From Rubripirellula sp. (GTDB lineage Bacteria > Planctomycetota > Planctomycetia > Pirellulales > Pirellulaceae): 64,000 bases of DNA. Position numbers and translations under genes: made by a program. The notes beneath the pieces are model-generated. The model made no database searches. It was not told the origin of the DNA and saw nothing but the letters and a program-made list of their open reading frames with translations. How positions within the stretch are numbered: position 1 is the first letter of the stretch; every line of letters begins with the position of its first letter. Below are positions 1,375 through 16,004 of the stretch, piece after piece. The stretch lies in NCBI GenBank assembly GCA_965216875.1, contig OZ244207.1, forward strand, positions 4,992,001-5,056,000. Direction: 5' to 3'.

Positions 1375-3939
1375 ATGAAACCTCTCTACGCTTGGACCAT
1401 CCTCTTGGTCCTCATAACGCACAACGTTCACGCAGACTTTCAGGTTGCTGCCGGATTGTCGCTTCGCAAAGTCGCGGGTGATGATCTTGTTCCCGACTGC
1501 ACTTGCATCACCGTCACACCCGACAATCGTGTCGTTGCGTCCGGGCCGGGCTACATTCGGATTTTGGAAGACGTCGATGGTGATGGAGGATTCGATCGAT
1601 TTCGAACGATTGTGGACCGTCCAAGCCGCGGCGCGCACGGTCTATTCGTCGACGAAGAACAACTCCTCTTTGTCGGCGACGGTGGTGTCTGGAAAATCGA
1701 TGATGTGGACTCAAACGGCACCTTCAAGGGCGAGCCATCCCAAGTCCTGAGAATCAAGACGGGCGGCGAGCATGATGCGCATGCGATTCGCAAAGGCTTT
1801 GACAACCATTGGTATTTGATCTGCGGAAACGGAGTTCCCGATCCGGCCCAGCTTCAAAACCGCCTCCAGCCCCTCATCGAGCGTCCGCGGGCTGGAGTGA
1901 TCTGGCGAATCACAGCCGATTGGTCACGTAGGGAAGTGTTTGCCCACGGTTTCCGAAACGCCTATGACTTCGACTTTGGACCTGGCAAAACAATCGACAC
2001 CTTTGACAGCGATGGCGAGAGAGACGTTTCGCTGCCGTGGTACCGCCCAACACGCGTCTTTCGAGTGCGTCACGGAGACGACGCCGGCTGGATCTCGCGA
2101 AGCTGGAAGCGTCCCAACACCGATCCGCAGATGCCGCAGGTGCTTGCAGAATTTGGCCGCGGTTCGCCAACGGGAGTGGCACGTTATCGGCATGGCCGGT
2201 TTCCCGATCGGTTTCATCATGGCGTTTTCGTTGCCGATTGGACATTTGGACGCCTGCTTTTTGTCGGTGACGATGGCCGTCGCGAAGTCATCGTCGAGCC
2301 TGATGGCACCACCGGCTTTGCCATCACTGACGTCGAATGCACTCAAGATGGAAAGCTCGCCATCAGCGTTGGCGGGCGAGGCTCGCAGGGAGCCCTTTAT
2401 TTGCTCGATGCGAAACGACCACGAGCCGGCGCGCCGCAACCACATCCCTGGTCGACCGCGTTTCAAACGCGAGGCCCCTCCGAAGCGGCGGCGCGAGTCG
2501 TCGCACTTCGGTCCGCTCAGCCAATCAATGGCGACGTCGATGCCGCCAACCAAGCCATCGTGATCCTCCGCAATGGTCGATCAGCATTGCGACAGACTGG
2601 TCGAGACAGCGCAAATGAAGATCTCTTTGAAGCTTGCGCCCTGTTGATTGAAAGTGTTGGCAGCCTCGGCCCCGGGGATCCCAAAGACGCAAGAGGAAAG
2701 GAACAAGCCGCTGCTGTCTTTGACGGTTATCGTGGACCGTCGCGTCCCAAGCTGCCCAAGCTCGTGCACCAAGCGGCAACGGACGCTTTGGTGAATCTCA
2801 TTACATCAAACCAGCCGCGTTTGGTTCGAGATGAAGCGGTTCGCGCCCTTGCCGTACTCGAGCCTGAGTCCGGCACAGCGTTGGCCGCGCTGATCGATGA
2901 TATTGCACGCGTCAAAAGCCCAACGGCAAAGCTTCATCGATTGATCGCGAGCGCTCGATTGCCGGTCCGTCACAACGACATCACCACGGAACAGATCGTG
3001 GAGGCCATGATCGAGATTCCGATCCTCGTTGACTCCAGCGGGTTCAACATCGACCGCAATTGGGCACCACGTCTGGCCGAATTGCATGACGCACTTCAAC
3101 GCAACGATTCGTTGTTGACGAGTCGCTTAGTCACCAATCCCAAATTTGGTCATCCTTCGCACCTCGTTTGGACGCTCCGGATGGATCCCGAGAACCTCGA
3201 GCGGTTCCGCGTTCGCTTGCTTGGCGATCCTAAACGACGCCGTGACCCGAAACTCGCGAGATTCATCGCCGAGGGCAACGACGCTATCCGTCGTAGCGTG
3301 ATCAAAGATTGGTTGGAGAATGCTGAAACACGGCCCGCCGCTTGGCTCGCGATCGCGAATCATCCCAACGCCAATGACGTCGCGACTCTAACCACAGCCT
3401 ATCGGTCACTCGACCCCGCCATACACGCTGCCGCGGCTCAGGCGTTGCAAAAGCTCGGTGTCGATCCGCCGCAACCGAGAGAAGCTGCCGAATCCGTGAA
3501 AAACTGGCTTGCGCGTGGCGAGGCGATCTTTGCCCTCTCACCGAACCGCGAAAAAGGCAAGCAGCTCTATATCGAAAAGTCTTGCGCAACCTGCCATCAA
3601 GGTACCAAGACGCTTGGACCACGACTCGAAGGGGTTTCCAAACGGTTCAGCCAAAGCGACGTGCTGCGTGCAACGGTTGACCCGAATCATCACATTCCCG
3701 ATCGTTTCCGGGCGAAACAAGTTTTGACAAGCGATGGACAGGTCGTCGTCGGCATGAAAATCTATGAGAGCGTCGACGGCTTGACCCTGATGACCGCCGA
3801 GGGCAAAACCGTCCGCATCAACGCACCTGAGATCGAAGAGTCTCGGCCGGCTGCAAAGTCGCTGATGCCAGAAGGTTTGCTCGAAGGAATGAGCAACCAA
3901 CAGGCCGCTGATCTGATCGACTACGTCCGCTCGATGTAG
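1375..3939 (+). CDS. PVC-type membrane-bound dehydrogenase-like beta-propeller / HEAT / cytochrome c protein
   Basis: Signal peptide; GFRNAYDFDF and GRGSPTG propeller motifs; C-terminal CATCH heme motif and SLMPEGL. Confidence 0.85.
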   Translation: MKPLYAWTILLVLITHNVHADFQVAAGLSLRKVAGDDLVPDCTCITVTPDNRVVASGPGYIRILEDVDGDGGFDRFRTIVDRPSRGAHGLFVDEEQLLFVGDGGVWKIDDVDSNGTFKGEPSQVLRIKTGGEHDAHAIRKGFDNHWYLICGNGVPDPAQLQNRLQPLIERPRAGVIWRITADWSRREVFAHGFRNAYDFDFGPGKTIDTFDSDGERDVSLPWYRPTRVFRVRHGDDAGWISRSWKRPNTDPQMPQVLAEFGRGSPTGVARYRHGRFPDRFHHGVFVADWTFGRLLFVGDDGRREVIVEPDGTTGFAITDVECTQDGKLAISVGGRGSQGALYLLDAKRPRAGAPQPHPWSTAFQTRGPSEAAARVVALRSAQPINGDVDAANQAIVILRNGRSALRQTGRDSANEDLFEACALLIESVGSLGPGDPKDARGKEQAAAVFDGYRGPSRPKLPKLVHQAATDALVNLITSNQPRLVRDEAVRALAVLEPESGTALAALIDDIARVKSPTAKLHRLIASARLPVRHNDITTEQIVEAMIEIPILVDSSGFNIDRNWAPRLAELHDALQRNDSLLTSRLVTNPKFGHPSHLVWTLRMDPENLERFRVRLLGDPKRRRDPKLARFIAEGNDAIRRSVIKDWLENAETRPAAWLAIANHPNANDVATLTTAYRSLDPAIHAAAAQALQKLGVDPPQPREAAESVKNWLARGEAIFALSPNREKGKQLYIEKSCATCHQGTKTLGPRLEGVSKRFSQSDVLRATVDPNHHIPDRFRAKQVLTSDGQVVVGMKIYESVDGLTLMTAEGKTVRINAPEIEESRPAAKSLMPEGLLEGMSNQQAADLIDYVRSM

Positions 3940-4076
3940 AAGTCCTCAACACTGGACGGGCAAGTTGCTGCCGGGTTTCTACACGGATTTGGCGTCAACA
4001 TGCAAGACAACCGGCAGCCACTCGACCATGATGTCGGGGTCATCTTGTCCTTGAAGTCCAAATGTCTGAAGTCCAC

Positions 4077-4847
4077 ATGTTTTATCGCAGCCTCCTCTTT
4101 GCCGCGTCGTTGGTTGGCCTCGTTGCCGGCCCCGTCGCGAACTCGGCCGAAACCGACCATCCAATCGTGATCGTTCACGGTGCGTGGGGCGGCTCGCACC
4201 ATTGGAAGGCCGTCGCCGACGAGTTGACTCAAAAACACGGGCACACCGTCCGTCGTGTTTCATTGACGGGACTCGGTCCCAAACAACATTTGGCAACGCC
4301 AGACGTCGATCTCGACACACACATTCAAGATGTTGTCAATGCGATCGAATTTGATGAACTGAAGGACGTGATCGTGATCGCGCACAGTTATGGTGGTGTC
4401 GTCGCGTCGGGTGTTGCCCACAAGATCCCAGCGCGTCTTGCGCACGTTTACTATTTGGATTCGCACCTGCTTGAAGACGGCGAGTGCTACTTAACGCATC
4501 ATGCTGACGCGCGAGAGCAACTCACCAAACGAGCCGCTGAAGCGGGCGACGGCTGGCTGATTCCAGTCGATTGGCCCAATCACGTTCGCGACGTACCACA
4601 TCCGCTGGCGACGTTGACCCAAGCGCTCAAGCTTGATCACTCCGACGGTGCATCGGTCGCGGCATCCTATTGGCTGTTTGCTGACGGTAGGCCGGCCGAG
4701 CAAGATAGCCGCCATCGGTATCTCGAACGAGCCAAAACGCGTGGCTACACAACCCGAGTTCTGGATTGGAATCACAACCCACAACGGGAACGCCCAACGG
4801 ACGTGGCAACGGCCATCGACAAAGCGATCGACACACTTCAACACTGA
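4077..4847 (+). CDS. Secreted alpha/beta hydrolase (salicylate-esterase-like)
   Basis: Signal peptide; IVHGAWGG oxyanion motif and AHSYGG nucleophile elbow; alternative start at 4062. Confidence 0.85.
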   Translation: MFYRSLLFAASLVGLVAGPVANSAETDHPIVIVHGAWGGSHHWKAVADELTQKHGHTVRRVSLTGLGPKQHLATPDVDLDTHIQDVVNAIEFDELKDVIVIAHSYGGVVASGVAHKIPARLAHVYYLDSHLLEDGECYLTHHADAREQLTKRAAEAGDGWLIPVDWPNHVRDVPHPLATLTQALKLDHSDGASVAASYWLFADGRPAEQDSRHRYLERAKTRGYTTRVLDWNHNPQRERPTDVATAIDKAIDTLQH

Positions 4848-4853
4848 GCGCCT

Positions 4854-5158
4854 GTGATATCGGCGGCTAGCGTTTGTTCGTAGTACCGAGCTTTAGCCGG
4901 AATCTTTAGGCTCTGCCGCCTGAAGGCGGGACGACGAACAAGAAGCGTCCGAGCGACTGTGATTCTCCGTGAGCCGAACGCGCTAGCGTCGGGCCTTGCA
5001 ACATCGGCCTTGCTTGGTGCGTTGTGATACCGGCGGCTAGCGTTTGTTCGTAGTACCGAGCTTTAGCCGGAATCTTCAGGCTCTGCCGCCTGAAGGCGGG
5101 ACGACGGACAAGAGGCATTCGAACGACTGAGGTTTTCCGTGAGCCGAACGCGCCAGCG
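4854..5158. repeat. Composite REP cluster, a 170-bp-period direct duplication containing family B and family F palindromes
   Basis: Sequence from 4861 recurs at 5031; contains GTTCGTAGTACCGAGCTTTAGCCGGAATC...CCGCCTGAAGGCGGGACGAC and GTGAGCCGAACGCGCTAGCG. Confidence 0.9.
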
Positions 5159-8900: not shown

Positions 8901-10766
8901 TCACTTGATCTCAACCGTCTGGCGAAGCTGAGCTGGGGGCAAACAAAAGGTGTCACGACACACTTCGTAGTCGACCAAGACACGCAACCTCGTTGTCGCG
9001 GCAACGTCATCAACCCGGACTTTCCGACTGAATTGCGCGATCGCTTGGTAGATCTTTTCTTGTGGATTTTGCCTCGAAGGCTGGCCCTTTGAACGGGTCC
9101 ACTTTCCCAGCGGTGCGACACCGCCTGGCAAGTCGAACTTCAGTCGCACTGGAACATGGGCGCCGCCTTCAGGAACTTCCGAGTAAAGGTGCCATCCCGG
9201 TTTGATGGAGATCGTCACCTTCACGTCGTAGACGCCCGGCTGATCCTCAACCGGATCGGCGACCGTCACCATGCTTAACTGGTCCGTCGAAACCTTGTCG
9301 TCAGTCTCGAAGGTGTCCACCTTTTCTTCAGGCTTGACGTCTTTCTCAGGCTTTGCGTCCGGTGATTCTGCCGCTGAGCCCGCGGACGAAACCGCGTGCT
9401 TGGGCGCATCTGGATTCCGTCGGAAGTACCAAACTTGACTGATACGAGATTCCTTTTCGATGAACTCTTTGTTCCGCTCGCTCAGCTTTTCGAACCTACC
9501 TTGAAATGGCTTCATCGCCTCTTCGAAGGCCTCTTGATCGTAGTCCCCGGCCTCAAACTTCTTGGCAAACTCTTTTTGTACCGCTTGGCTTTCCGCCGTC
9601 AGGGCTTCAATCGCCTGCCGCACTTCTTCCTGGGCGACTTTTTCTTCGTCGGTCATCTCGCGCAGGTGATAGACGTCTGAGTAGTCGCCAACGATCAAGT
9701 CGAGCCAACCATCGTTGTCATAGTCAACAACGCAGATCTGGCTTCGAACGCCCAGTGCCGCTTCGTCGTCCTTGCCAAGGTATTGCATCTTGAACTTTGA
9801 TTCCGAACCAGCTGCGATCAGTGGTCGGTACGCTTCGAACTTTGGCTCACCTGTTGAACCTTGCGTCACGTTGCGATACCAGCCAACTGCGCCGTCACCC
9901 GAACCGACGACCAAGTCCCATTTGCCGTCGTTGTCCCAATCAGCAGCAACGGGCGCAGCGTGCATGTTGACGTGCAAGGGTTCCTCACCAACGTTCACTT
10001 GGATCGCGTCGACCGAGTACTTCGGTGTTTCGCGCGTGCCGATGTTCGTGCGCAAAAACAAGTCGCCCGAGAACGAACCTATCAAAACGTCGAGATCGCC
10101 GTCGCCATCCCAATCGACGGTCGTCGGCCAGCTTCCAAAGGTCGCGACTCGCAACGTGATTGAATCGGTATCACCAGAGTTCTGCTTCTCTTCGTCAAGC
10201 TCATTCCACTTGGCAAGCTCGACCGGATGGTGGACCAGTTCGATTCCTGACTCGTCACGAATCTTTTCGACTTCGGCATACTTGCCATCACCCAAACCGC
10301 GAAACAGATAGATGTCGCCGGGGTCGTACGAACCGCTGATCATGTCGAGCGTGCCGTCGTTGTCGTAGTCCACAAACTGTGGACTTGACGCGATGCATCA
10401 GTAAACCGGTGTCTTGGCATCGACACCACCTGCTTGAAGTTTGCCTTTGGACGTGTACTCAGGCTTTTCGTCGTTGGCCGTGTTTTCGAAGAACCAAAAG
10501 AAGCCTGGAAAATCCCCCACCAACAGATCGCGGTCACCATCACCATCGACGTCCGCCACGCAGGGTCCAGCGTGAGCAATGTTTGACAATTGACCGATGT
10601 CGATCGGCTTGCCGTCCGCTTGGATGCGAACTCCTTTGTCTAGATCGCCGACCACTCGATCTTTCGTCAAGTCCTGCTCGCCGGCGATCGCCGTTGGAAG
10701 CGCCAGCAGCCCCATCAACAGCGTGCATGAACCACGCCCCACCTTCCTCAATAACCGACAACACAT
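8901..10766 (-). CDS. Candidate selenoprotein: secreted FG-GAP/VCBS-repeat protein with U123-C124 and a C-terminal DsbD-alpha-like domain (621 aa with TGA readthrough at 10398-10400)
   Basis: ORFs 10398..10766 and 8901..10373 are in one frame and join as KTPVY-TGA-CIASSPQFVDYDNDG; repeated DxDxDGxxDLxxG motifs lie on both sides; C-terminus has IKPGWHLYS and YEVCRDTFCLPP; SECIS-like hairpin follows the TGA. Confidence 0.75.
10362..10400 (-). promoter_or_regulatory. Bacterial SECIS-like element
   Basis: UGA, a 12-nt spacer, then AGUCCACA-GUU-UGUGGACU (perfect 8-bp stem, loop starting GU), extended by GUC/GAC. Confidence 0.7.
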
Positions 10767-10854
10767 TTAGGTCATCTCCCACGTGCGTGTTGCAAGAAAC
10801 GGAATTCCCACCAGAAGAAATTGTACCGGGCGCACGGCCAGCACGCTCGAATCG

Positions 10855-11757
10855 CTAGGAGCGACCCACTCCGATCTCGAGTACGCGGTTTTCGGAGGCC
10901 GAGGTCTCGATCAGCGCGGCGACTTGGGTCGCCAAATGGACATCGCCCCAGGTGATGGGGAAGGGTGTTCCGGCGAGGATTGCTTTGGCAAATTCGTGCA
11001 AAAGAGAATCCTCGGCATGCTCATCGTCGCCATTCGATGCGGCGAGCTCAGGTCCCGTCTTGCCCGGAACGTTTTGCCCCTGAACCTTTTGACCCTGTCC
11101 TTTTTCATCAAAGAGTTGGAAACGACGTTGGCTATCGACTTGAGCCGTAGCCTGAGTGCCCACCAGCGTGAGCGAATTGCATGCTTCGCCCGGAAACTTT
11201 GTGCAGGTGTCGATCAATGCCGTCGCCCCCGATGCAAAATCGAGATGTGCCTGAGCCAACCCATCTCGCAAAACGCCATAGACGCTCGAGGGTACAGAGC
11301 CGATCAACCACATCACCAAATCGAGTTGCTCAGCCAACCCTTGTTTCGGAGATTGTTGAGTGTTCGCCCATGCGTGAATCCGGATCAAGCGAGGTTCGCC
11401 GAGCTCGCCCATAAGGAGTGCCTTTTTGAGCTGAACCATCGCCGGCTCAAACCGCAACATCATCGCCGGCATCGAACGACCACTCGAGCCCATCACGGAG
11501 ATCATGTCTGGCTCAACCAGAAAGGGATCGATTGTCAATTGATGCCCGCCTCGTTGAATCATTCCCAAGTGTTCCAGCGGCGATTCCGTGACAACCGCTC
11601 GAGCCGAATCGAGATCGGTCTGAGCAGCGATCAAGCGATTCGTTGCCGCGGCCTTTTGGAGTCGTTCGCCACGATCATCTTGAACGCCAACCCAGATCGC
11701 AACTTGGCGAGTTGGATTCGAAGCGTGTTGCATTTCCCTGGGATCCATCTCGCTCAA
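10855..11757 (-). CDS. Divergent Gfo/Idh/MocA-family oxidoreductase-like protein
   Basis: LRFEPAMVQLKKALLMGELGEPRLIRI and LDLVMWLIG resemble the GFO C-domain; no clear GxGxxG. Confidence 0.6.
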   Translation of the reverse strand: MSEMDPREMQHASNPTRQVAIWVGVQDDRGERLQKAAATNRLIAAQTDLDSARAVVTESPLEHLGMIQRGGHQLTIDPFLVEPDMISVMGSSGRSMPAMMLRFEPAMVQLKKALLMGELGEPRLIRIHAWANTQQSPKQGLAEQLDLVMWLIGSVPSSVYGVLRDGLAQAHLDFASGATALIDTCTKFPGEACNSLTLVGTQATAQVDSQRRFQLFDEKGQGQKVQGQNVPGKTGPELAASNGDDEHAEDSLLHEFAKAILAGTPFPITWGDVHLATQVAALIETSASENRVLEIGVGRS

Positions 11758-11806
11758 TGGTGCTCGCGAAAAGTGAAGGCGACCGCTTGATGAATGCGGC
11801 GGGAGC

Positions 11807-14200
11807 TTATCTTACTTCAAGGTAGGGATTGATGGTTTGCGCCTTTTCGACGCCCTTGGACGTGACCTGATACCGCCCCACTTGGATGGAAACATAGCGC
11901 AGGCTCGCACACTTCGCGAGCTCGAACAAACCTTCGTCCGTGACGTTGGGCGATTCGATAATGAGGGTCTCAAGTTTTGGGGATTGGCCGAGGTGCTTGA
12001 GCCCTTCGTCACTCACCGCCACTTTGCCCAGGTAGAGTGAGGTCAGCGAGGGAATCCTGGACAAATGCAAACACGCTTGATCACCGAGTGATGGCGTATT
12101 GCGTATTTTGAGTTCTTTGAGTTCGGGCAGTTTCTGCAGGTGGATGAGGTATCGCCCCTTGATCGCTTCGGAGATCAACTCCACTTCTTTCAGCTCGGGG
12201 CAATGGGCCAGGTAAGGCAACCCCGAGCCGGTCATCAATTCCGATTGAAAATTGAGTCGCTGTAAATTCGGCAAGGCTTCAAACGCTTGCATGCCGTGAT
12301 CCGTAATCGTTGACTTTCGTGTCAGCAGGTACTCGAGTTGTGGGAACTGATTCAGTTTTTGAAATTGTCGATCGTCAAGTGACGCTGAGACAGATTCGAA
12401 TGCCGTGACATTCGGCAGCGGCTCATCAAGTTTCCAGATCGGAGCGTGGGCGACCTTGCCACGAACGGAGATGCTTTTCAACTTGGTGAGTGCTTGCAGA
12501 GGCGTCAGGTCCAAGGTGCGCTGAATCGCTTCAATCTGAACGGTTTCCAGTTGAGGCATCGACAGCATGTCGGTGATCGACCCTTGCCCCGAAAAGGGCG
12601 TTTGCCAGCGAGTGTCATTGTCAAACAGGCTGCCATGACCGTTGACGCGCATCGAAACGCCGGGATAGCGAGCCTGCAGTTGGGCAAGACCACCGCGAGT
12701 CACGGGGCAGGGCGTGATGACCAAACGCCTGAAACCCGCCGGCAACTTGAGGCCAACAAGCTCATCATCAGACAATTTCGGATCATCGACAATGAGCTCT
12801 TTCAATCCGCTCAACTCTGCAATGCGACCAAGCTGATGCGGTGCGATACGTTCGAGCCACAAGCCTTCGATTCCGCGGAGCGCGGCGACTTCGTCCAAAT
12901 CCCACGACACCTTTCCTGACGATTCAAGCTCAGGCATCACCGACGGTGGACCAGCGGTGTGCAGGTCGTACATTCGACCACGCGTGCCCAACGGTGTGAG
13001 ATGAAGGTCCGCGATCTGACCTGGCCAATGAAGCACGGGTCTGAGTCGATTGGAAAAAAACGGTCGAAGGAAAAGAAGGGGCACGACGGACAAGTTCCGA
13101 AGCTTGGCAGCTTCGATCGCCTGGGCTTGAGTTGGCGACAACTCGGTGCGAATCGTCAACTCCAAGTCAGGACGTGCCTTCGCCAAACGCTCAATCGCCT
13201 CTTTGCTAAACCGACCCGATAGCTCAACGCGTCTTAGCGGCTGCTTTGCATTGCCCACAACTTCGAGCGAGCGATCCGTCAAATTACCACTTAGCGTGAT
13301 CGATTCGATCGAGTTCATTTGCGTCAGCGACTGCGTCGCTTGATCCGAAATTCCCGAACCAATCAGATTGACCTCTTGTAACTTTCGACATCGGGCAATG
13401 CTTTCAGCGTCCTCATCACTCGCGCCAACAAATCGCGAAGCAAACAACTCGAGGTTTGGTAGAGTCGGCAGCACATCCACGAGACGCGAGGGCAAGTCGT
13501 CGGCATAGGTCAACTTTGAAACCGGACATCCATCCAGACGATGAAACTGGTCGTAGTACACGCCGGACCGAGACAAGTCGAGCTGTTGGAGGTTGGGGAG
13601 TTTCGAAACGTCACCTAGCCCCGGACCGAGCACCCCCGAACCGAGCGTCAATTCACGCAGCGAAGGTATCTTCAACAGGTGTGCAAGTCCGGCATCCGAA
13701 ACACCTGTCTCATGAATATCCAATGCCACCAGTTGTTTGCAGTTGGCAAGCGGAACGAGCCCATCGTCGGTAAGGTGCGTTCGCCAAAGTGATAAGCGTT
13801 CAAGTTGTTCCAAACGAGCGATGTACTTCATCCCCTCGTCGCCAAGATGGGAACGATTGAAGTAGGCGCGTTTCAAGTTTGACAGGTGAGTGATCGGCGC
13901 AATCGAATCGTCATTGAGCATTGGCGATCCGGCGCGAATCTGAACGGCCAAGACGAATCGCTCGGGATCGAGCTTGGCAATCCAACTTGGTCGGACGCCG
14001 ATCGTTTGAATCTCGGCACCCTTTTCGGCCAGCTGTAGACTCGCCTCATGCTGGCGATAGTAGAAGACGTAGAAGTGAAGCCAGACCGCCAGCAGGATGG
14101 CTAGAAAGGTAACCATCACCAGCAGCGTACGTAGCCGCCAGCGCAGCCCCCACTTTTTCGAGTTTGCCTTGATGTCGTGCCCCGGCACCTGCTCACTCAC
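11807..14200 (-). CDS. Membrane-anchored leucine-rich repeat protein (planctomycete type)
   Basis: RWRLRTLL + TM leader; many LxxLxxLxLxxTxVTDxGL repeats. Confidence 0.9.
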   Translation of the reverse strand: MSEQVPGHDIKANSKKWGLRWRLRTLLVMVTFLAILLAVWLHFYVFYYRQHEASLQLAEKGAEIQTIGVRPSWIAKLDPERFVLAVQIRAGSPMLNDDSIAPITHLSNLKRAYFNRSHLGDEGMKYIARLEQLERLSLWRTHLTDDGLVPLANCKQLVALDIHETGVSDAGLAHLLKIPSLRELTLGSGVLGPGLGDVSKLPNLQQLDLSRSGVYYDQFHRLDGCPVSKLTYADDLPSRLVDVLPTLPNLELFASRFVGASDEDAESIARCRKLQEVNLIGSGISDQATQSLTQMNSIESITLSGNLTDRSLEVVGNAKQPLRRVELSGRFSKEAIERLAKARPDLELTIRTELSPTQAQAIEAAKLRNLSVVPLLFLRPFFSNRLRPVLHWPGQIADLHLTPLGTRGRMYDLHTAGPPSVMPELESSGKVSWDLDEVAALRGIEGLWLERIAPHQLGRIAELSGLKELIVDDPKLSDDELVGLKLPAGFRRLVITPCPVTRGGLAQLQARYPGVSMRVNGHGSLFDNDTRWQTPFSGQGSITDMLSMPQLETVQIEAIQRTLDLTPLQALTKLKSISVRGKVAHAPIWKLDEPLPNVTAFESVSASLDDRQFQKLNQFPQLEYLLTRKSTITDHGMQAFEALPNLQRLNFQSELMTGSGLPYLAHCPELKEVELISEAIKGRYLIHLQKLPELKELKIRNTPSLGDQACLHLSRIPSLTSLYLGKVAVSDEGLKHLGQSPKLETLIIESPNVTDEGLFELAKCASLRYVSIQVGRYQVTSKGVEKAQTINPYLEVR

Positions 14201-14583
14201 GTTGTCTGTTCATCCCTCGATGCGAGATCGCGCATCAATCACACCACCTTTATACTCCGGCGAGAACGACGATGCGCTGTCACTACCTTCGGCCAGACAG
14301 CGGGGCCTCGCCCATGTCCCCAGCCGGTCAACGTCCCGACGGGGTCACCCGTCCCTGACTTTGAAATGCCGTCCGATGCCGCAAATCAGTGGCGGAAGGA
14401 CTGCCAAACAGGCGATTTGTCATTGAAGTGACGGCTGTCCCGTTCGGCCGCCGACCGCGGGTGAAGTGTAAGCTCGTCCACGTGATGAGGCTATTTCACC
14501 TACGCAATGGGTGGTCGCCGGGCTAACCTGTCACCAGTCAACGTTAGTTATCCTTCCTCTTAACACGCGAGGAGTTTCATTCA

Positions 14584-14946
14584 ATGAAACGATCGTCTTT
14601 ACTGCTGCCCATCGCGATGCTGGTCGCGATCGGCTGTTCGGCCGAACCTGAGGCAACGGTTGATTCCAATGCCACAGAGTCGACCCAAACCGTACAAACT
14701 CCAGCTGGAACCGATTCCGAGGCTGTCACCTTTGTCAGTCTCAAAGTTCCCAACATGGTCTGAGGAGGCTGTGCCGCTTCGGTCCGAAGCGATCTGTCCA
14801 AAATCGCAGGTGTCAGCGATATCAAAACCGACATCCCCAACAAGACCTGTTCGTTCAAGATCTCTGATCCTAACGTTGACTACGAGGCGGAACTGAAGAA
14901 GTACGCCGAAACGAACACGCACTTGGCTGAATACACCATTCAGTAG
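14584..14946 (+). CDS. Candidate selenoprotein: heavy-metal-associated (HMA/CopZ/MerP-like) lipoprotein with M-V-U-G-G-C (120 aa, TGA at 14761-14763); absent from the ORF track
   Basis: GAGGAG RBS; MKRSSLLLPIAMLVAIGC lipobox; VSLKVPNMV-U-GGCAASVRSDLSKIAGVSDI matches the HMA MxCxxC fold; frame stays open to TAG 14944-14946; terminator follows; SECIS-like hairpin present. Confidence 0.85.
14761..14791 (+). promoter_or_regulatory. Bacterial SECIS-like element
   Basis: UGA, an 11-nt spacer, then CGCUUCG-GUC-CGAAGCG; GGUC apex as in the E. coli fdhF SECIS. Confidence 0.75.
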
Positions 14947-15008: not shown

Positions 15009-15136
15009 TGATCGAAAAGAAAACGGAGATTTCTTTCCCCGCGGTGTAATCCTGGAGGCCGTTGTGCCCTTTGTCTAATGTCAACACGAGACAAACGAAC
15101 AAAACACAAGGCAAACCAACTCAAGGAGCCAGGACA

Positions 15137-15559
15137 ATGAAAACCTCATGGAAGTCAATCGTAGCAGCAGGAACGGTCGTCGCCGCTTTGGGACTTTGCG
15201 TTCCGCAAACGGCAAGTGCACAGGGCACCGTGTACGTTTCGACCCCAACCGTCGTCAACGCAACTGTGGGCTACACCGTCGAACAACGCGGATTGCTCGG
15301 ACGACGAACGGTTGTCCGCCCCGTGGTCGCCCCAGTGGTGACAAACACCGTGGTCGCCCGACCTGTCATCACAACGCCTGTGGTGACAACCCCCGTGGTC
15401 CCAGCACCTGTCGTTCAAACCCGCGTGGTCACGCCAGTCGTCACTCCACCAGCACCTGTCACGGTGGCTCGCCCTGTTTACACCGCAGCCCCCACAACCG
15501 TCGTGCAACCCGTCGCTCCGGTGACCTACTACACGCCCCCTGTGCTGACGGCATGGTGA
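15137..15559 (+). CDS. Secreted Pro/Val/Thr-rich low-complexity protein
   Basis: AAGGAG RBS; signal peptide ending ASA-Q; VGYTVEQRGLLGRRTVVRPVV; paralogue at 20783-21220. Confidence 0.8.
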   Translation: MKTSWKSIVAAGTVVAALGLCVPQTASAQGTVYVSTPTVVNATVGYTVEQRGLLGRRTVVRPVVAPVVTNTVVARPVITTPVVTTPVVPAPVVQTRVVTPVVTPPAPVTVARPVYTAAPTTVVQPVAPVTYYTPPVLTAW

Positions 15560-15650: not shown

Positions 15651-16004
15651 TTAGCGAACGATGGTGCGACCAAACTTGGTGATCACGACTTCGACGCTGT
15701 GGTCGCAGCCTGGGAACTTGTAGGTCAGGACCTTGCGACCGAAGAAACCAGATCGGCATCCGCAGTACACAGGAGGAACTTCTGCACAGCAGGCTGGCAC
15801 GCATGCCGACACTTCATAGGTGCAGCATGGGTTGCATGGATCTGCAACGCACCATGAAACCTTCACCGGTGGTGGAGGGCATGGGGTGCAGCAAACAGGT
15901 GCTGGCTTGCAGCATGGATCAAGGCAACCAGCGTCGGCCGGCGCTGCCATTGCAACCAAAGCGGCTACCATGCACCCGGCGATCAAACCACGTAAACGAA
16001 ACAT
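15651..16004 (-). CDS. Small secreted Cys/Pro-rich protein (planctomycete-type)
   Basis: Signal peptide ending ADA-G; CC pairs; RSGFFGRKVLTY. Confidence 0.8.
   Translation of the reverse strand: MFRLRGLIAGCMVAALVAMAAPADAGCLDPCCKPAPVCCTPCPPPPVKVSWCVADPCNPCCTYEVSACVPACCAEVPPVYCGCRSGFFGRKVLTYKFPGCDHSVEVVITKFGRTIVR

Follow-up and report, generated by a model that had tools for sequence, protein, structure and literature searches.

The question raised by this locus is how two in-frame TGA codons, in two genes about 4 kb apart, are read by the cell. The DNA studied, referred to below as the window, is a 64,000-nucleotide stretch of the planctomycete Rubripirellula sp. (GenBank assembly GCA_965216875.1, contig OZ244207.1, positions 4,992,001 to 5,056,000), and positions are those of the window unless a contig is named. 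We refer to the two genes as gene A and gene B. A sequence-only reading had proposed that both encode exported proteins recoded at UGA, either as part of a large, overlooked envelope selenoproteome or by reading UGA as cysteine (Cys). The joint explanation that we consider very probable is that both TGAs are ordinary selenocysteine (Sec) codons, that gene A encodes the end-station of a redox relay and gene B a metallochaperone-like protein, and that the two belong, independently of each other, to a selenoproteome numbering at least 14 genes. Both TGAs would be read as Sec by SelD, SelA, SelB, and tRNA-Sec, with the help of a Sec insertion sequence (SECIS) hairpin just downstream of each.

Gene A (8901..10766, minus strand) is an open reading frame (ORF) of 621 codons once its single internal TGA is translated as Sec (U); its true stop, at 8901-8903, is also a TGA. 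It encodes a predicted signal peptide, an FG-GAP/VCBS propeller, a helical hairpin, and a DsbD_N-like domain. The internal TGA (10395..10397) is codon 123 and is followed by Cys124, which gives a vicinal U-C pair in the context Y-U-C; the first D-x-D-x-D-G loop comes right after it. Gene B (14584..14946, plus strand) stays open for 120 codons under the same translation, again with one internal TGA, and encodes a lipoprotein-type protein of the heavy-metal-associated (HMA) family PF00403. An AGGAG stands 11 nucleotides ahead of its ATG. The TGA of gene B (14761..14763) is codon 60, in the motif M-V-U-G-G-C, a form of M-x-U-x-x-C. The gene order and strands described in the sequence-only reading are correct: gene A, a GFO/IDH/MocA-like ORF, and a leucine-rich repeat (LRR) gene are on the minus strand, followed by the divergent gene B.

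The TGA of gene A was conserved across orthologous loci. A Sec codon followed by a Cys codon (TGA-TGY) was found at the identical column in all 23 of these loci, 16 of which were retrieved from a sample of 300 Planctomycetota genomes and 7 from relatives. At E-values of 1e-30 or below, gene A had a match in 34 of the 300 sampled genomes, about one in nine. Exactly one TGA was present in 38 of the 39 non-self matches, and the 39th stops short of the site. Among 40 relatives, seven genera have TGA at this column and two have Cys. C-C replaces U-C in six near-full-length database homologues, and a lone Cys occupies the Sec position in loci L020 and L026. Coding potential is high on both sides of the codon (0.224 and 0.312).

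The gene A family also bears out the suggestion that such genes have been overlooked in public protein sets. Only part of the query, just 77-79%, is covered by 41 of the best 50 database matches. Two products that were aligned residue by residue (P0026 and P0069) start just after the TGA, and the majority consensus of alignment A3 (43 sequences) begins at M/V-D-Y-D, just past it. P0001 is the 490-amino-acid product downstream of the gene A TGA itself. It appears that most public records hold the family cut at the Sec codon, under the names 'VCBS repeat-containing' or 'DsbD domain-containing'. Judged by these comparisons, the family has a wide distribution in the phylum, almost always takes its predicted Sec form, and is missing from current inventories.

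A SECIS-like stem had been noticed after each TGA, and both stems are present, conserved, and marked by compensatory changes. In gene A, the hairpin (10365..10381, minus strand) has the stem GUCCAC, the loop AGUUU, and the stem GUGGAC. Our hairpin filter describes it as an 8-bp stem with a GUU loop, 15 nucleotides downstream of the TGA. In the alignment, columns 17-22 pair with columns 28-33 around a 5-nucleotide loop, mostly AGUUY. Across 24 sequences, 89.6% of the cells are paired, whereas control alignments with a shifted partner strand reach no more than 51.4%. One stem pair changes from A-U to G-C in five sequences, where a synonymous Pro change is matched with a Val-to-Ala change.

Gene B gave a similar result over a narrower range of genomes. 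Eleven non-self loci were compared: seven have TGA at or next to the column, three have Cys, and one has no alignment spanning it. The TGA is kept in the same-genus genome G002 (73% identity) and in G024, G009, G014, and G017; G004 and G022, which are more distant, have it too. The Cys forms are those of G006, G023, and G035 (loci L034, L035, and L036). Coding potential is again high on both sides (0.125 and 0.165), and a single HMA domain spans the TGA, with a PF00403 score of 36.3 bits against a cut-off of 24.8. The gene B hairpin (14775..14791, plus strand; stem CGCUUCG, loop GUC, stem CGAAGCG) has a 7-bp stem and begins 11 nucleotides past the TGA. Its pattern, CGCYUCG-GUC-CGARGCG, is kept in all six closer orthologues and is missing from all three Cys forms. 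Two double changes occur in the stem, U-A to C-G and G-C to A-U, and in one of them a Ser/Gly substitution is coupled to a silent change in an Ala codon.

The genome encodes the machinery needed to decode these codons. The genes selD, selA, and selB are adjacent at C1:325282-330621, and all three score over curated cut-offs. The lone UCA tRNA (C1:7784436-7784530) matches the tRNA-Sec model RF01852 with 71.5 bits, compared to a gathering threshold of 47, and its discriminator base is G. Genes A and B each combine the features by which bacterial selenoproteins are recognized: a conserved UGA, Cys homologues, a conserved hairpin, and sel genes with a tRNA-Sec in the genome. TGA also retains its usual meaning elsewhere. 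It is the stop of 509 of 1426 ORFs of at least 500 amino acids genome-wide and of 12 of 26 ORFs of at least 300 amino acids in the window, gene A included. The earlier view that both TGAs are recoded site-specifically at Cys-type positions, while ordinary genes still stop at TGA, agrees with these counts.

Some features of the decoding genes were recorded in passing. The selD sequence (C1:325282-326163) lies within an open frame of 749 codons; the model has only 311 positions, and the extra part may be a fusion. The genome has 99 tRNA genes, many of them duplicated. One with a CUA, amber-reading anticodon (C1:3282034-3282109; L081:201-276, minus strand) was called 'tRNA-Pyl' by ARAGORN, matches the general tRNA model of Rfam with 60 bits, and could be a suppressor-like tRNA. 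ARAGORN also reported a tRNA-like gene with a four-base anticodon (tttc) at C1:3442059-3442132.

To find further genes of this kind, a periodic Markov coding model was used and every in-frame TGA of the genome was scanned. At 200 of them the sequence looked coding both before and after the codon, and 40 of these candidates were compared with Pfam. The sequence-only reading had anticipated more TGA/Cys-type genes, and the scan yielded at least 14 selenoprotein genes, namely genes A and B and 12 others. In eleven of the 14, the Sec is preceded by a hydrophobic stretch near the N-terminus, which by hydropathy is a signal peptide or membrane anchor; the FmdB, YciW-like, and ArsC-like proteins have none. 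A Pfam domain spans the TGA in nine genes beyond A and B, and three of these also match NCBIfam models. Five of the 14 or more genes fit no listed family.

The members with a recognizable family are varied. Two score over their NCBIfam cut-offs: FmdB (c37, 492.5 bits), which adjoins the sel operon, and an ArsC-family (seleno)protein (c81, 143.4 bits). A YciW/AhpD-like protein with C-x-x-U (c38) reaches 251.9 bits with the YciW-related (seleno)protein model, below its cut-off of 310. There are two AhpC/TSA proteins, with F-T-G-G-U (c113) and W-U-P-H-C (c8), a deiodinase/redoxin-like protein with T-U-P-P-F (c153), a Thioredoxin_7 plus SHD1 protein with T-U-P-P-C (c16), a rhodanese with U at the catalytic Cys (c167), and a DUF3179 protein with W-U-H-L-C (c172). 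Whole-genome family searches returned the same TGA members and no others: 3 of 24 for AhpC-TSA, 1 of 11 for Thioredoxin_7, and 1 of 2 for HMA.

Three members have no family and are distinguished by conservation of the TGA. In c195, all eight site-spanning non-self matches, of eight listed, have TGA. In c130, TGA is present in all seven site-spanning non-self matches, and an eighth falls short of the site. In c156, a protein of about 1100 amino acids with U-P-G-C, TGA was found in 7 of 10 spanning matches; the other three have no stop there, and an eleventh is too short. The three family-less conserved-TGA proteins are candidate new selenoprotein families. Three such proteins, anchored in the membrane or exported and without a Pfam or NCBIfam family, lie at C1:3658044-3661349 (L070; G-L-U-P-G-C), 1385633-1386745 (L075; V-F-U-P-G-Y), and 3178756-3180531 (L065; G-F-T-U-N-N).

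Other candidates were set aside. Eleven (c1, c25, c29, c53, c60, c61, c89, c104, c105, c115, and c143) are adjacent same-frame genes, since none of their Pfam domains crosses the TGA: each ends ahead of it or starts beyond it. Two (c192 and c137) are ambiguous by this domain criterion and stand outside the 14. Candidate c36 (TGA at C1:332624; L015, frame 10463-12085) has a perfect 8-bp stem with a GUU loop, lies in an fhcD-like/fmdB spacer, and was left uncounted; a third TGA follows it, ahead of the likely fmdB start. Candidate c183 (C1:3991783 region) is a copy of a repeated element in which TGA replaces a Trp codon found in at least seven other copies, and is probably a pseudogene copy, not a case of recoding. 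A relaxed motif scan, for Cys within four residues of the TGA, gave 24 extra candidates, none convincing. A within-genome paralogue test found a Cys paralogue at the site for only three plausible candidates and is too insensitive to size the selenoproteome.

Whether this selenoproteome is large depends on the comparison. Bacteria typically have few selenoprotein genes, a level that 14 clearly exceeds, whereas the record selenoproteomes, of 57-63 genes, belong to anaerobes and are far larger (PMC13188914). The earlier claim of a large envelope selenoproteome holds insofar as there are at least 14 genes, 11 of them envelope-facing, but beside these records the size is moderate. The related claim of a Se-dependent envelope system fared likewise: 11 of the 14 products are exported or anchored, but the 14 genes are scattered, which does not point to a single system.

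This bears on whether genes A and B belong together. A reading in which A, B, and the intervening LRR and GFO-like genes form one selenium-dependent envelope module would account for the 4.4 kb between A and B, for the predicted export of both, and for the LRR, HMA, and Cys-rich genes staying together in G002. We consider it improbable. Although A and B are one of only two close pairs among the scattered genes (the other, c37 and c38, is 20 kb apart), the chance of some pair lying within 4.4 kb among 14 genes is about 9%. Their orthologues are on separate contigs in four genomes (G009, G017, G024, and G014), and with gene A as the query no gene A orthologue was found in G002, which keeps the LRR-HMA-Cys-rich block. 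The genes beside gene B in the other genera examined all differ (a ZIP transporter, GNAT, hydrolase, BNR, GFO, HtrA, and an ECF sigma factor), as do those beside gene A over 22 loci. The synteny check that the sequence-only reading had called for was negative for the functional link between these neighbors. Genome comparison indicates that A and B are independent members of the selenoproteome, neither an operon nor a conserved module.

Less probable still is that the UGAs are read as Cys by a SelB-dependent UCA tRNA with Cys identity, so that both genes make ordinary Cys proteins. Cys-inserting UCA tRNAs are reported from a few bacteria, the TGA positions are Cys positions in homologues, and sequence alone cannot separate Sec from Cys. 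However, the only UCA tRNA in this genome is a canonical tRNA-Sec whose discriminator G points to serine-type identity, whereas cysteinyl-tRNA synthetase (CysRS) requires U73. In addition, selA and selD are intact beside selB, and the genome has a single cysS, with no paralogue. The UGA-to-Cys alternative, which the sequence-only reading had left standing, is thus very unlikely here.

We give almost no credence to a third reading, in which each TGA is a nonsense mutation or splits two genes, and the ORF downstream of it is a separate gene or what remains of a pseudogene. Gene callers do divide these genes, as P0001 illustrates, and of the 186 scan candidates outside the 14, most resemble adjacent same-frame genes. 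Yet the gene A TGA keeps one column in all 23 loci, with many families sampled, and that of gene B recurs in seven loci. Coding potential is high on both sides of each codon, the HMA domain spans the gene B TGA, and both hairpins covary. Two independent nonsense mutations had already been thought unlikely, and the conservation of both TGAs refutes them. Global reassignment of UGA to Trp, Gly, or another residue, for which there is nothing beyond the two open frames, is negligible, since 509 of the 1426 long ORFs end in TGA, as does gene A itself, and only about 14 in-frame TGAs are supported.

With Sec as the preferred reading of both codons, we asked what the two proteins might do. Gene A begins with a predicted signal peptide (residues 1-29, 10680..10766, minus strand), for which the heuristic evidence is a KD12 maximum of 2.19 at residue 16 and an A-I-A motif; the N-terminus is basic, then hydrophobic, and residues 1-30 have a predicted local distance difference test (pLDDT) score below 50. 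The claim that both proteins are exported is consistent with N-terminal hydropathy signals in A and B, as a heuristic reading. The FG-GAP beta-propeller with its DxDxDG loops (about residues 40-370, 9657..10649, minus strand) was identified by Pfam (PF13517, FG-GAP_3, 79.9 bits; PF01839, 34.3 bits), by invariant D/G/W columns, and by the fold of the model. The DsbD-alpha-like domain (residues 514-614, 8925..9227, minus strand) matches PF11412 (DsbD_N) with 36.7 bits against a cut-off of 25. It contains Cys603-x4-Cys608, a pair that is invariant in alignment A3 and precedes a P-P motif. Gene A is not a full DsbD, as it has neither DsbD_TM nor a C-terminal thioredoxin domain. Scanning NCBIfam with gene A gave no family at an E-value of 0.01 or below.

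An AlphaFold model of gene A, made with the 43-sequence alignment, has a mean pLDDT of 85.8 and a predicted template modeling score (pTM) of 0.77. The propeller spans about residues 40-370 and is followed by helices that form a long hairpin (373-433); a linker at 460-487 is disordered, and residues 497-620 are all-beta. The U123-C124 loop connects strand 4 of a blade to strand 1 of the blade after it and is less confident than its surroundings (pLDDT 71 for residues 121-130). The model would place Sec123-Cys124 on a flexible loop ahead of blade 2. The top Foldseek matches are integrin-alpha, BBS, and CRTAC1 propellers, with E-values of 1e-9 to 1e-6, and no enzyme hinting at chemistry is among them. 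Because of the topology of integrin propellers and the inter-blade position of the loop, we infer that the U-C loop would lie on the ligand-binding face.

A clue to function comes from a fusion. On a public metagenome-assembled genome contig (L099), a 924-codon gene A orthologue (2288-5062, plus strand) has two in-frame TGAs. The propeller, with Y-U-C, is followed by the DsbD_N domain and then by a helical region; a TlpA-like thioredoxin domain carrying W-U-G-P-C comes last. The second Sec, in the fused thioredoxin domain, suggests a selenol/thiol relay. In the Rubripirellula genome, the best matches to the fused thioredoxin domain are Cys-type TlpA-like proteins. A single canonical DsbD is encoded there, a 914-amino-acid frame that combines DsbD_N, DsbD_TM, and Thioredoxin_7, and the genome's only DsbD_TM (C1:2623950-2624594) is separate from gene A. 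A SelO gene lies just upstream of the L099 fusion on the opposite strand.

In DsbD, the thioredoxin-like domain passes electrons to the alpha domain, and the alpha domain passes them to clients. By analogy with this flow, gene A would be the end-station of a periplasmic selenol/thiol-disulfide relay. A membrane DsbD or a TlpA-like thioredoxin, acting in trans in Rubripirellula, would donate electrons and reduce the DsbD-alpha-like Cys603-x4-Cys608 pair. This pair would then pass electrons to the Sec123-Cys124 selenenylsulfide on the propeller, from which they would reach a substrate. We regard this mechanism as plausible. Export of the proteins, the way in which electrons would flow, any substrate, and the metal specificity of gene B are all inferred.

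Gene B is most likely to work in the manner of MerP and CopZ, as a tethered periplasmic binder of soft metals. Its lipoprotein-type signal (14584..14637, plus strand) runs up to Cys18, with A-I-G-C at residues 15-18 and a KD12 maximum of 2.66, again a heuristic call. The product would be a membrane-tethered, periplasmic, HMA metallochaperone-like protein. With Sec in place of the first Cys of M-x-C-x-x-C, the site would offer Cu(I), Hg(II), or Ag(I) a ligand that is softer and a stronger nucleophile. Gene B is one of two HMA domains in the genome, and the other is in an 890-amino-acid frame. Three named families were tried and rejected for gene B. MerP (TIGR02052) gave the best NCBIfam score, 27.7, far below the cut-off of 92.55, and CopZ (NF033795) gave 27.0 against a cut-off of 91. 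The U-x-x-U metal-binding (seleno)protein model NF041115 gave 21.2 against 95, and gene B has one Sec, in U-x-x-C. No mer or cop operon surrounds gene B, whose neighbors are LRR, V/P-rich, Cys-rich, and ECF (extracytoplasmic function) sigma factor genes.

Several points count against this account of the two genes. Sec insertion is deduced here from genome sequence. The hairpin filter also accepts true TGA stops (13 of 509) and TGAs that are out of frame (2094 of 61466), a background of 2.6-3.4%; since it admits such background TGAs, a hairpin alone is weak evidence, and conservation of the structure decides. A more distant clade of the gene A family has a single Cys at the Sec site, so the vicinal pair is not universal. 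Export was called heuristically, by hydropathy and eye. The relay is supported by domain homology and a single fusion orthologue. The neighbors of the gene A family share no gene pointing to a substrate over 22 loci, and those of gene B share none over five loci or genera. Gene B had no match at an E-value of 1e-8 or below in the 300-genome phylum sample, which includes only one other genome of its family. The scan may miss a Sec near gene ends or in weak coding signal, which makes 14 a lower bound. A possible fifteenth gene, c121 (C-G-G-G-G-U-G-G-G-S-C), stands outside the 14 and has one weak homologue, which lacks the TGA. In its distribution, gene B would be a narrow lineage feature, seen no further afield than its family and some families related to it.

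The genes around A and B are of less consequence. The GFO/IDH/MocA-like ORF (10855..11757, minus strand, 300 codons), outside the selenoprotein genes, has only the C-terminal domain (PF22725, 29.5 bits). A Rossmann N-terminal domain was not matched by Pfam, and there is no upstream room for one. No homologue of this ORF was found in the 22 flanking loci compared for the gene A and gene B orthologues. The LRR gene (11807..14200, minus strand) encodes 797 codons with an N-terminal membrane segment, matches LRR families of Pfam, and is a mere neighbor, kept beside the HMA gene only in G002. Directly after gene B, at 15062-15559 (plus strand), is a secreted-looking protein of 165 codons, mainly V/P/T repeats and without a family match, which was not seen beside the HMA gene in G002 or the other genera examined. 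At 15651-16004 (minus strand) is an exported protein of 117 codons, which matches no Pfam or NCBIfam family and contains about 20 Cys, arranged as runs of CC and CxxC. Its counterpart in G002, with 81% conservation, also adjoins the HMA gene, and the protein may be a metal-binding partner.

Planctomycete selenoproteins have been reported before (Kim et al. 2016, PMC4807772). That paper describes an fmdB-Sec gene next to the unusual sel operon of a Rhodopirellula strain, and its Table S9 alone contains four 'FG-Gap repeat / ASPIC UnbV' candidates from the Porphyra-associated planctomycetes P1 and P2. Like gene A, these candidates come from planctomycetes, encode FG-GAP repeats, and have been divided by annotation into two halves at an in-frame TGA; a SECIS was predicted in three of four. 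Unlike gene A, they are 'ASPIC UnbV domain' proteins, and their closest NCBI match has Gly at the site. PMC4807772 gives them no DsbD domain, Cys pairing, distribution, or mechanism, and gene A was compared with them by description only. A 2026 inventory lists 119 prokaryotic selenoprotein families (PMC13188914, Table 1), among them DUF3179, deiodinase-like, CMD/AhpD-like, ArsC-like, Prx-like, and rhodanese forms, as well as HMA-type sites in other architectures. Table 1 contains no entry for FG-GAP, VCBS, PF13517, PF01839, or PF11412, and no stand-alone HMA lipoprotein. Literature pairing selenoproteins with FG-GAP, VCBS, or Planctomycetota gave nothing relevant, although the BSepDB family table (S2), which could list such a family, was outside the comparison. 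Sec decoding itself is textbook knowledge; what is new, as far as Table 1 of PMC13188914 and NCBIfam extend, is an FG-GAP/DsbD-alpha family with a Sec-Cys pair.

A broader proposal can be offered tentatively, and we hold it to be possible rather than probable. The FG-GAP/DsbD-alpha protein might found a phylum-wide, almost obligately Sec class of periplasmic enzymes in which a vicinal Sec-Cys on the propeller, instead of on a thioredoxin fold, is the catalytic end of a DsbD-type relay, and, together with four more exported families that likewise lack a listed counterpart (the HMA lipoprotein, c195, c156, and c130), might form a dedicated envelope redox and metal system of Planctomycetota. If this is true, annotation pipelines have split and missed a selenium-dependent system of this phylum. 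In any case, planctomycete genomes need gene calling that is Sec-aware. An apparently aerobic heterotroph with at least 14 selenoprotein genes, 11 of them envelope-facing, shifts the picture away from rich selenoproteomes being found in anaerobes only. The genes, Sec sites, SECIS hairpins, and two-Sec Rosetta-stone fusion open the way to direct experiments on why selenium is preferred outside the cytoplasm, where oxidants and soft metals reach thiols.

Three known systems are useful for comparison. The first is the relay from the alpha domain of E. coli DsbD to DsbC, DsbG, and CcmG. Gene A resembles it in its C-terminal domain, which matches PF11412 and keeps C-x4-C, and the orthologue with a thioredoxin-like domain fused behind mirrors the gamma-alpha pairing of DsbD. 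In contrast to DsbD, gene A has no transmembrane beta part, and the fused partner is a Sec-Cys FG-GAP propeller rather than a thioredoxin-fold client. The second is animal thioredoxin reductase, which has a vicinal Cys-Sec redox center (G-C-U-G) on a flexible segment, supplied with electrons by a second, dithiol center. The adjacent Sec and Cys of gene A could likewise form an eight-membered selenenylsulfide ring. The order in gene A is U-C and not C-U, however, and the pair is on the loop of an exported beta-propeller instead of the C-terminus of a flavoenzyme.

The third comparison is that of gene B with MerP and CopZ. Sec has been listed at a metal-ligand Cys of other HMA-type proteins (PMC13188914, Table 1), and Sec metal sites are already known in a cation-transporting ATPase (U-x-x-C), in NF041115 (U-x-x-U), and in a MerT/CopZ fusion (NF045683). 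Gene B differs from MerP and CopZ in being a stand-alone lipoprotein with sub-cut-off scores, no mer or cop operon, and a narrow range. It shares with them the HMA fold and the M-x-[C/U]-x-x-C metal loop.

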